DNA from: Escherichia coli
Lineage (GTDB): Bacteria > Pseudomonadota > Gammaproteobacteria > Enterobacterales > Enterobacteriaceae
Length of the DNA: 64,000 bases
Reading direction: 5' to 3' (one strand)
Assembly: GCF_002854065.1 (NCBI RefSeq)
Contig: NZ_CP024147.1
Position 1 is the first letter of the stretch, and each line of letters begins with the position of its first letter. Made by a program: the position numbers. Below are positions 3,833 to 6,800 of the stretch, piece after piece.

Positions 3833-6800
3833 TAATTCGTTATTCAACGAGACGTAAAAACGCCGACCAGTGGTCGGCGTTTTGCTTTATAGCGAAAGCG
3901 TTACAACTGGTAGTATAACGCTCTGATATCTATTAATTAGCTTGTCGCTAACTGTACTTGCGGTTCTTCATCTTTAACTTTGATAAGCGTCCACAGCGCA
4001 ATGGCGCCAATAATGTCAAAGAAAGCCAGGGCAATAAAGAACGGCGCGAAGCCGATAATGTGAACGAATGCCCCGATAAACAGGTTGAAAATCAACTGAC
4101 CGCTCCACGCACAGGCTCCTGCCATACCCACTGCGGTAGCTACTTCGTCTTTTTTGAACAGATCGCCACCCAGAGTTGCTGCTACAGTAGAAAGACATTG
4201 ATGCGAGAACGCGCCAATACTAATCAGTAATACGGCAATGTAGGGATTTTCGACAATACTCACCAGGCCAATCGTCATCATAATGACGGCTGCAATAGTG
4301 AAGGTAATTCTTCGTGAGTTAATTAAACTCACGCCGCGATCGTGGAAGAACTTCGCGACAAAACCACTGGCTAAACAGCCGAGATCGCCCAGCAGGAAAG
4401 GCAGCCAGACGAACATGGCAATTTCTTTCAGGCTAAAATGCAGCGTTTCGACGAAGAAAATCGGCACCCAGAAGTTAATGGTTCCCCATGCCGGGTCTGC
4501 GAGAAAACGCGCGATGCCAATCCCCCAGAAATTACGTTGGCTGAGGATATGCTTGATTGACGTTTTTTCTTTCTTATCTGTTTTAAGATGCTGTTCTTGC
4601 CCTGATTCAATATAGTGGCGCTCTTCATCAGAAAGGCGTTTGGCATCTTTCGGATCTTTATAACAAAAGAACCAAAATAAAGCCGCGAGCAAAGCAAGGC
4701 TACCTGAAACAATAAACGCAAATTGCCAGCTATGAAACATAATGCACCAGGCAATCAACGGTGGAGCAAGCATCGCGCCGAGTGAGGTGCCCATATTGAA
4801 AACACCTGTCGCCACGCCACGCTCTTTTGCCGGGAACCATGTTGATGCGGTTTTTACACCCGCCGGAATTGCCGACGCTTCGCTGAAACCCATCAGGGCG
4901 CGCATAAATGCCAGACCTGACCACGTTCCGGTTAGTGCATGGCCCATTGTCGCCAGGCCCCAAATTGCGGCACATATCGCAAAACTTAACTTCAGACCCA
5001 CGGTATCAATAAAGAAGCCCATTACCGGTTGCCCTAATGTATAGGCCAACTGGAATGCACTGACAATCCATGAATATTGCTCTTTAGTTATTCCGGTTGT
5101 CTCCATAATCGTTGGAGCCGCAATACCTAACGCCGTTCTGTCCAGATAATTGATTACAGTGATAAAGCATACGAGGGCAATCATATGCCACCGGTAATTC
5201 GGTAATGACTCCAACTTATTGATAGTGTTTTATGTTCAGATAATGCCCGATGACTTTGTCATGCAGCTCCACCGATTTTGAGAACGACAGCGACTTCCGT
5301 CCCAGCCGTGCCAGGTGCTGCCTCAGATTCAGGTTATGCCGCTCAATTCGCTGCGTATATCGCTTGCTGATTACGTGCAGCTTTCCCTTCAGGCGGGATT
5401 CATACAGCGGCCAGCCATCCGTCATCCATATCACCACGTCAAAGGGTGACAGCAGGCTCATAAGACGCCCCAGCGTCGCCATAGTGCGTTCACCGAATAC
5501 GTGCGCAACAACCGTCTTCCGGAGCCTGTCATACGCGTAAAACAGCCAGCGCTGGCGCGATTTAGCCCCGACGTATCCCCACTGTTCGTCCATTTCCGCG
5601 CAGACGATGACGTCACTGCCCGGCTGTATGCGCGAGGTTACCGACTGCGGCCTGAGTTTTTTAAATGGCGGAAAATCGTGTTGAGGCCAACGCCCATAAT
5701 GCGGGCGGTTGCCCGGCATCCAACGCCATTCATGGCCATATCAATGATTTTCTGGTGCGTACCGGGTTGAGAAGCGGTGTAAGTGAACTGCAGTTGCCAT
5801 GTTTTACGGCAGTGAGAGCAGAGATAGCGCTGATGTCCGGCAGTGCTTTTGCCGTTACGCACCACCCCGTCAGTAGCTGAACAGGAGGGACAGCTGATAG
5901 AAACAGAAGCCACTGGAGCACCTCAAAAACACCATCATACACTAAATCAGTAAGTTGGCAGCATCACCCATCTACTGCGCACGAATAAAACTGCCATCCG
6001 GCTGGCGGGTAAACAGGACCTGTTGATTATTCCCCGTATCAATAGTTAAGCCCGTCACCACGCCGCTGGCGTTCTGGCGGATTTTCACCATCTGCCCGTT
6101 TTGCAAATTACTCAGCGGCTTACCCGCGCCTTCTACCTGCGCCATTGCATAGACATCGGTAGCGGGCAGTCCGTGGTCGCGGAACAGCTGCGCCATCGTT
6201 TTACCGGGTTCGACACGGTAAGAGCGCCATTGATTATCAATTCCGCTATCTGGCTGGAATGGTTGTGTTTGGGTAGTTTGCGGCTGTTCTTCTGGCTGGC
6301 CTTCCTGTATAGGTTCTGGAGCGACCGGAGCCACCTGATCAGGATCATTTTGTGGTGTGACTAATTGCGCCCGCAGCTGTTCTTCTGTCGGCGGTTGTGA
6401 TTGCGACTGAATATCTAACTGCGCTTCACGCGTCACCACCGGCGCGTTGGGCGTATCATCAGATGGAAGCAGAAATCCGACCACCAATATAATGGCGGCA
6501 ATAATGATCCCCCGACGATGCATCGGCGGCAGCGGGTCCATGAAGCGAAAATTGTCCGGCGCGTGCCAGACTTTCTCCAGGGTTGGTTTTAGTTCAAAGC
6601 GCCCGGGCATGGTTTCCTCCTGCTCCGCGTCTTGTTCCTCAATCATAGCCTATGAATAAGCTAACGCTATGATGTCCGTGGTAAACCCGCCTTTATTATA
6701 TTCATACGGGATATTGCTATTGTTTCTTTTTCCCCGGGATTTGTCATCATTCCTGCGACAAAGTTTTACCCAAAGAAGTGTGGCTGATATGCTGCCCGCT

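Follow-up and report, generated by a model that had tools for sequence, protein, structure and literature searches.

How did a complete IS1 come to lie between ytfB and the gene of an MFS transporter when nothing at its ends resembles the footprint of an ordinary insertion? The question is posed by a stretch of Escherichia coli DNA of 64,000 nucleotides, here called the window. A simple insertion of IS1 is normally flanked by a direct duplication of the target of 8-9 bp. An element without this mark may have had a more eventful history, and the history may be read, at least in part, from what its relatives still carry at the same place.

The IS1 element and its flanks

The element is a complete IS1 of the IS1B type, 768 bp long (5201-5968, minus strand), bounded by IRR at 5201 and by IRL at 5968, as judged from its exact ends and its identity to annotated copies. 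The earlier note on this DNA had called it complete, which is correct, both ends being exact; the span given there, 5186-5980, is slightly too wide. The canonical IRR-side 54-mer is found at 5201-5254 and the canonical IRL-side 65-mer at 5904-5968 on the minus strand, both with 0 mismatches and each as a single occurrence in the window, where shuffled sequence leads one to expect 0. It is the sole IS1 sequence within the 64 kb. Of its terminal inverted repeats, IRR (GGTAATGACTCCAACTTATTGAT, 5201-5223) adjoins the remnant of the MFS gene and IRL (GGTGATGCTGCCAACTTACTGAT, 5946-5968, read on the minus strand) adjoins ytfB.

The transposase of IS1 is the product of insA fused to insB' by a -1 frameshift, and these parts are intact: insA, encoding 91 aa from a GTG start (5638-5913, minus strand, by ORF list and translation), the insB' frame, which taken as an ORF of its own has 167 aa (5216-5719, minus strand, by ORF list), and the programmed -1 frameshift motif of the A6C type, TTTAAAAAAC (5656-5665, minus strand), at position 304 counted from IRL. 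Over the 768 bp the window copy is 100% identical in nucleotide sequence to the copies of the strains LR-27, P276M and TUM17543, which RefSeq (PGAP) annotates as "IS1-like element IS1B family transposase" with a programmed frameshift. In its length, its imperfect terminal repeats of about 23 bp, its insA/insB' arrangement and its A6C motif, the element does not differ from the IS1 family and its E. coli IS1B type; the flanking duplication of 8-9 bp alone is missing.

The 9-bp flanks are CGGTAATTC at 5192-5200 and CATCTACTG at 5969-5977. The earlier note had quoted them exactly and had considered them unrelated, and so they are: they share 3 of 9 positions, about as many as chance would give. 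Nor does any register yield the duplication that this note had named as speaking against its view. With the IS1 boundaries shifted by -3 to +3 bp, no direct repeat of 8-10 bp with up to 2 mismatches was detected, and the longest substring common to the 30-bp flanks is 5 nt. The duplication is missing because of a deletion, as outlined below; the identification of the element as IS1 is not affected.

The ancestral locus and the extent of the deletion

The ancestral state was examined in three complete E. coli genomes, AH65, O68:H12 97.3 and CUWW06, which match the flanks of the window at 99.98-100%. To the right of IS1, 20 kb are practically 100% identical to CUWW06, O68:H12 97.3, AH65, AH62, KFu015 and other complete E. 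coli genomes. A Shigella source, to which the presence of IS1 had pointed, was rejected in view of these flanks, which over 20 kb are ~100% those of commensal and livestock E. coli.

All three genomes contain, between rplI and ytfB, an island that is free of any IS. It starts, next after rplI, with the MFS transporter on the minus strand, followed by an FAD-dependent oxidoreductase (690 aa), an acyl-CoA:acetate/3-ketoacid CoA transferase (513 aa), an enoyl-CoA hydratase (258 aa), a TIM-barrel protein of the sugar-phosphate isomerase/epimerase family (280 aa, Pfam AP_endonuc_2) and an SDR protein called "3-ketoacyl-ACP reductase" (263 aa). The seventh gene, a regulator of the TetR/AcrR type, is transcribed divergently, and its 3' end overlaps that of ytfB by 17 bp.

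The alignment to relatives, which had been proposed in the earlier note, gives a clean deletion with IS1 exactly at the breakpoint. Against the locus of AH65 (L009), the 4,891 bp to the left of the element contain a single mismatch and the 815 bp to its right none. On the left the match stops at AH65 position 4891, which corresponds to the junction 5200/5201 of the window, and on the right it resumes at 11887, corresponding to the junction 5968/5969; exactly 6,995 bp are replaced by IS1. At the left junction AH65 continues with the AT-rich TTTATTTTATTCATGTTTAAACC...; the native sequence to the right of this junction reads TTTATTTTATTCATG, that to the left of the right junction GGTTGATCCTT. Lost are nucleotides 1-14 of the MFS gene together with the DNA upstream of them, all five genes for enzymes, the divergent promoter region and the TetR gene except for its last 20 nt. 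No match to the deleted 7-kb segment is found elsewhere in the 64-kb window, and the rest of the window is collinear with AH65 over ~56 kb.

What the comparison establishes is that DNA was deleted, between which exact endpoints, and what it contained. As compared with these relatives, the structure is almost certainly an IS1-associated deletion of the rplI-ytfB island rather than a simple insertion. The earlier note had argued that an IS1 without duplication results from an adjacent deletion or from recombination between two IS1 copies, and the loss of 6,995 bp right at the element supports that argument. A direct contact between the MFS start and ytfB without any IS1, the other result that the note had named as contrary to its view, was not found in the close relatives: AH65, 97.3 and CUWW06 keep the 7-kb island intact.

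IS copies are classic points of mis-assembly, and a repeat-collapsed or mis-joined contig could have placed IS1 between regions that are not adjacent. Here, however, the flanks come from one locus, stand in the right order and orientation and are only 7 kb apart in the relatives; moreover, fully assembled genomes show IS1-bounded deletions of the same kind at this locus. An artefact of assembly is hardly credible.

Distribution of the island and of the junctions

The island is present, at a coverage of at least 80%, in 3,087 of 5,426 complete E. coli genomes (57%). In K-12 the gene order is rplI-yjfZ-ytfA-ytfB, as the earlier note had correctly indicated, and the ytfA pseudogene is nothing else than the TetR gene of the island reduced to its 3' 402 nt. 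K-12 thus resembles the window in that the catabolic island is gone and a 3' piece of the TetR gene is kept beside ytfB. It differs in having no IS at the breakpoint, in retaining 402 nt of the TetR gene instead of 20 nt, in having lost the MFS gene as well and in the presence of yjfZ. By this comparison, the K-12 arrangement is not the ancestral state for the source strain and is the result of a different deletion. A search of the literature for IS1 or the island at the ytfA/ytfB/yjfZ locus yielded nothing relevant.

The junctions of the window were searched by megablast with 240-bp queries in the 5,426 complete RefSeq genomes of E. coli. Neither the left nor the right one was found in any of them. 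With the right-junction query, every match of high coverage consisted of two separated pieces. The query for the left junction did match in a single piece in J-8 and the UTI89 group, but these are insertions that miss the junction by 13 and 28 bp. Exact 24-mers across each junction were likewise absent from the GTDB representative genomes and from metagenome contigs. The source strain has this deletion to itself, and in consequence there is no precursor genome to inspect.

IS1 events at the same locus in other strains

Other strains have experienced IS1 at this locus, and their junctions were mapped onto the coordinates of AH65. The resulting catalogue is biased, since the queries copied the layout of the window, i.e., an IS1 end in the same orientation beside the 5' end of the MFS gene or the 3' end of ytfB. 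For this reason a clustering of IS1 junctions is not claimed. A bias in the orientation of IS1 at the locus was dropped as an artefact of the same-orientation queries, and so was the impression that deletions never enter ytfB, as the queries needed intact ytfB or MFS sequence beside IS1.

Five strains show simple insertions with the regular duplication: LR-27 an IS1B with 8 bp (AH65 4710-4717), JNEC-KY203 with 9 bp (4822-4830), UTI89 with 9 bp (4855-4863), J-8 with 9 bp (4870-4878) and RCAD0514 with 8 bp (5024-5031). Those at 4830, 4863, 4878 and 5031 surround the left junction of the window at 4891. At position 5031 two IS1 events in opposite orientations share one and the same nucleotide, and a draft genome (GCA_036697655.1) carries an IS1 in opposite orientation 1 bp from the left junction of the window. 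In JNEC-KY203 the locus contains two direct copies of IS1, 210 bp apart.

Deletions are also on display. P276M, E308, JSMCR1 and C21 have the left junction of LR-27 (4717), yet their right junctions lie at 9061, ~9493, ~9569 and 11725, respectively; for PSS-10 a deletion with a right junction at ~11787 was deduced from match spans. One fixed end combined with varied far ends, as seen in the LR-27 series, is what adjacent deletion by IS1 classically leaves behind. In this series the fixed junction coincides with that of a simple insertion; for the window, the complete genomes, GTDB representatives and metagenome contigs searched yielded no such match.

The two junctions of the window differ in their surroundings. 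With 27-42% GC, the region of the left one is richer in AT than any other part of the island, while the right one lies in a stretch of 50% GC. IS1 prefers AT-rich targets, and the left junction fits this preference. In the TetR gene, each mapped IS1 end bounds a deletion; a possible exception is the TST3 locus, which is interrupted by ISKpn26 and the left side of which is unmapped.

How the deletion may have arisen

Most likely, the island was lost by an adjacent deletion that started from an IS1 insertion at the MFS end. IS1 would first have entered the MFS gene at its AT-rich 5' end, which gave rise to the junction 5200/5201. An intramolecular, replicative transposition of the cointegrate type would then have attacked a target at a distance of 7 kb, 3 bp beyond the stop codon of ytfB. 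The IRL end would thereby have been joined to the new site, and the intervening DNA would have been discarded, including one of the two repeats of the target that the first insertion had produced. We favour this sequence of events because of the comparative evidence at the same locus, i.e., the nested LR-27 series and the insertions around the left junction. The order of the events and the preference for transposase over recombination are our inference.

Adjacent deletions by IS1 are long known from gal and lac deletions and from deletion formation by Tn9/IS1. Like the window, they show an intact IS at the breakpoint, a contiguous loss on one side, no duplication and endpoints in AT-rich DNA. 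The window differs from them in that its fixed end is assigned by analogy with the LR-27 series. In the lines of Lenski's long-term evolution experiment, all 14 IS-associated deletions that lacked duplications were traced to an insertion made earlier and an adjacent deletion after it, and missing duplications are routinely ascribed to adjacent deletion or IS recombination (PMC11708052).

The same adjacent deletion could have run in reverse order, with IS1 inserted first 3 bp downstream of ytfB and a subsequent leftward deletion to the MFS start. This is mechanistically equivalent and leads to the identical product. However, no simple insertion at or near 11887 was seen in the search of the 5,426 complete genomes, and the right junction is embedded in DNA of 50% GC, whereas the left one borders the AT-richest segment with its simple insertions. 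We consider the reverse order improbable.

A RecA-dependent homologous recombination between two IS1 elements in direct repeat, the first at the 5' end of the MFS gene and the second 3 bp past the ytfB stop, each initially with a duplication of its own, would have excised the 7 kb with one IS1. It has the same outcome, a single IS with unrelated flanks, as is known for recombination between IS copies (PMC11708052). Both junctions are in or near regions where other strains have IS1 ends, the double insertion in JNEC-KY203 reveals that two direct copies do occur here, which also weighs against a deletion from the MFS side, and many relatives have more than 35 IS1 places per genome. On the other hand, IS1 would have had to insert twice independently, in direct orientation and within 7 kb, before a third event, and the mapped IS1 ends in the TetR gene bound deletions, not simple insertions, with the possible exception of TST3. 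Neither of the two prior insertions that recombination demands was found for the window: an IS1 at either junction is present in no genome searched, be it the 5,426 complete ones, the GTDB representatives or the metagenome contigs, though a short-lived intermediate may well escape such searches. A hybrid IS1 could have betrayed its two parents, yet the window copy is 100% identical to a common IS1B variant, and two parental halves are indistinguishable. This route is possible but rather unlikely.

The adjacent deletion from the MFS side has its own weak points. Its precursor is hypothetical, as the same searches disclosed no simple insertion at either junction of the window. A recombinant origin would leave no trace in an IS1 that is identical to a widespread variant. 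Finally, which of the two junctions is the older one is not readable from the sequence, and the comparative catalogue is biased by the way it was assembled.

The absent precursor could also be taken to favour a one-step event, in which IS1 is captured at a double-strand break in the course of an unrelated deletion, without any earlier copy. Such a route has been proposed for IS5 and IS481 (PMC11708052). It is not established for IS1, however; the left junction lies within a group of ordinary, duplication-bearing IS1 insertions, and a missing precursor is to be expected anyway for a private and recent event. We regard the capture of IS1 at a break as highly improbable. Adjacent deletion, recombination and one-step capture all end in one product, and the sequence alone cannot separate them; the adjacent deletion from the MFS side is preferred for the comparative reasons given above.

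Is the island a target hotspot?

Around the MFS start, a stretch of ~600 bp contains at least 12 independent IS1 events, be they insertions or endpoints of deletions, though in a query-biased set, and a second group of deletion endpoints is located in the AT-rich TetR gene. With ~12.8 chromosomal IS1 places per genome and a genome of ~4.9 Mb, an IS1 of the same orientation in a given 500-bp window is predicted for ~3.5 genomes; 24 were found. This rough calculation ignores shared ancestry. With the same reservation as to ancestry, the enrichment of IS1 at the locus may be called modest. That the rplI-ytfB island is a genuine target hotspot of IS1 and has been lost in parallel is a tentative and rather doubtful reading. 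Should it hold after proper control, local features such as AT-rich or bent DNA might steer IS1, or the motif GGTAATT beside the junction, which resembles the IS1 terminus GGTAATG, might do so; alternatively, loss of the catabolic operon might have been selected repeatedly in commensal and livestock E. coli.

Whatever the answer, the event in the window is an ordinary IS-associated deletion, a textbook process and nothing new in kind, and beyond annotation its importance is small. It accounts for the absence of an accessory catabolic operon that more than half of the complete E. coli genomes (the above 57%) possess. The source strain is one of many that have lost the island, and it adds a further natural case of genome reduction driven by IS1. 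The IS1 events catalogued at the locus could be of use as a small set of natural data on the choice of targets and on the endpoints of adjacent deletions.

The genes beside IS1

On the right side, the last 20 nt of the TetR/AcrR gene survive (5969-5988, plus strand), overlapping the 3' end of ytfB; the TetR coding sequence ends at AH65 position 11906. The ytfB gene, which in the RefSeq annotation encodes the cell division protein YtfB of 212 aa (5972-6610, minus strand), is intact. Its stop codon is located at 5972-5974, which bears out the distance of 3 bp to the IS1 end that the earlier note had stated. Transcripts of ytfB would now enter the IRL/insA end of IS1.

The deletion removed the whole catabolic operon with its repressor and left behind an orphan MFS gene without promoter. 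As to the function of the operon, the CoA transferase, the hydratase, the SDR protein and the flavoprotein suggest, by their predicted families, a pathway of carboxylic acids or acyl-CoA compounds. Among the island proteins only the generic model PRK12745, "3-ketoacyl-ACP reductase", reached its cut-off, and no other curated equivalog did so.

The MFS gene (3937-5200, minus strand) encodes a transporter of the anion:cation symporter type, similar to D-galactonate transporters; its match to the family TIGR00893 scores below the cut-off of the model. As the earlier note had it, the IS1 end cuts into the 5' coding region, and what is gone is the first 14 nt and the promoter. The IS1 end provides an in-frame TTG at 5212-5214, exactly at the place of the native ATG. 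The predicted chimeric N-terminus would read (M)ESLP-NYRWH versus the native MNKIK-NYRWH. That the terminus of IS1 offers a start codon at this very position is a coincidence. A chimeric protein of 425 aa starting at the IS1-derived TTG has no counterpart among the proteins on record. A version of 415 aa starting at an internal ATG is on record, yet it is not specific for the junction, because gene callers pick this internal ATG in intact islands too.

An outward hybrid promoter at the junction of IRR and the MFS gene was not detected by a promoter scan. The scan found 3 promoter-like sites, no more than in shuffled sequence, and the single one situated within IS1 is at its IRL end and directed inward. 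IS1 insertions are polar. Because of this polarity and the lack of a detectable outward promoter at the junction, the truncated MFS gene is probably silent, and it would be better annotated as a 5'-truncated orphan.

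The MFS gene at the IS1 junction

In the window, the MFS gene has its first 14 nt replaced in frame by the last 14 nt of IS1 (window 5184-5214), and a TTG supplied by the element stands exactly where the native ATG of the gene was. The mechanical list of open reading frames therefore still contains an ORF of 425 aa. A form of 415 aa, which starts at an internal ATG (5182-5184), is often called by RefSeq and Prodigal, also in genomes with an intact island.

The left flank itself resembles the terminus of the element. At window 5193-5207 the flank ends with GGTAATT, and a single base separates this from the IS1 terminus GGTAATG; the target thus matches the IS1 end in 6 of 7 positions immediately next to the junction. 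This likeness may be due to chance. Similar end homologies were remarked in older work on IS1 hotspots.

Other IS1 events near the MFS start

The start of the MFS gene was hit by IS1 more than once. A draft contig of GCA_036697655.1 (JBAHZO010000015.1; L031 1-150) terminates within an IS1, the IRL end of which adjoins the MFS gene just 1 bp from the left junction of the window, in opposite orientation. It is an independent event at almost the same nucleotide. A similar coincidence is seen at position 5031 of AH65, the strain with the IS-free reference locus (L009). This is the left junction of the IS1 of RCAD0514 (L003 10502-11269) and also of that of JNEC-KY203 (L005 5279-6046). The two copies have opposite orientations and are distinct IS1 variants, being 99.7% and 94.9% identical, respectively, to the copy in the window, which implies that the site was struck by two independent events. 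In JNEC-KY203 a second, direct IS1 lies 210 bp away.

Further into the MFS gene, an IS1B insertion at AH65 4710-4717, with an 8-bp duplication (CCATTACC), has given rise to a natural series of nested deletions, represented by LR-27 (L002), P276M (L012), E308 (L013), JSMCR1 (L014) and C21 (L001). The left junction is identical in the derivatives of this insertion; their right junctions fall at AH65 9061, about 9493, about 9569 and 11725.

The two most AT-rich stretches of the island are L009 4700-5100 (27-42% GC) and 11000-11800 (30-42% GC). They are also where the IS1 junctions of the various strains form their two clusters, in a catalogue that is biased by the way the matches were found.

Other haplotypes of the locus

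In a second haplotype, that of LR-45 (L020), TST3 (L021) and AR_0369 (L023), the MFS gene is replaced by TRAP-transporter genes, and the island query is matched by such genomes at 1639-8301 only. Here too, IS1-bounded deletions occur; they run from the TRAP genes into the TetR gene.

The ytfA pseudogene of K-12 MG1655 (NC_000913.3) represents the 3'-terminal 402 nt of the gene for the TetR/AcrR regulator of the island, as revealed by comparison of L011 3591-4096, the K-12 locus, with L009 11504-11906. K-12 lacks the entire island from the MFS gene through the first 245 nt of TetR; its breakpoint contains 103 bp of unmatched filler and no IS. In many genomes with a K-12-type locus (O157:H7, O26 and other strains), the TetR remnant adjoining ytfB is split by IS609, an element of the IS200/IS605 family that contains tnpA and a gene for the RNA-guided endonuclease TnpB/InsQ.

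Further differences from close relatives

CUWW06 and NT1F31 align with window 5969-25968 in two pieces, and the span of their records exceeds the query by 777 bp, which is what an IS1 together with a duplication of 9 bp would add. These two strains would be candidates for an IS1 insertion at some point within the 20 kb on the right side of ytfB.

The overall identity with AH65 is about 100% close to ytfB but 99.2% across 45 kb, a pattern that suggests a recombination mosaic. Apart from the deletion marked by IS1, the window differs markedly from AH65 only at 52064-53050, where about 0.9 kb is just 85% identical and shows indels; this divergent stretch falls within an AH65 gene for a hypothetical protein (L032 44913-46424).
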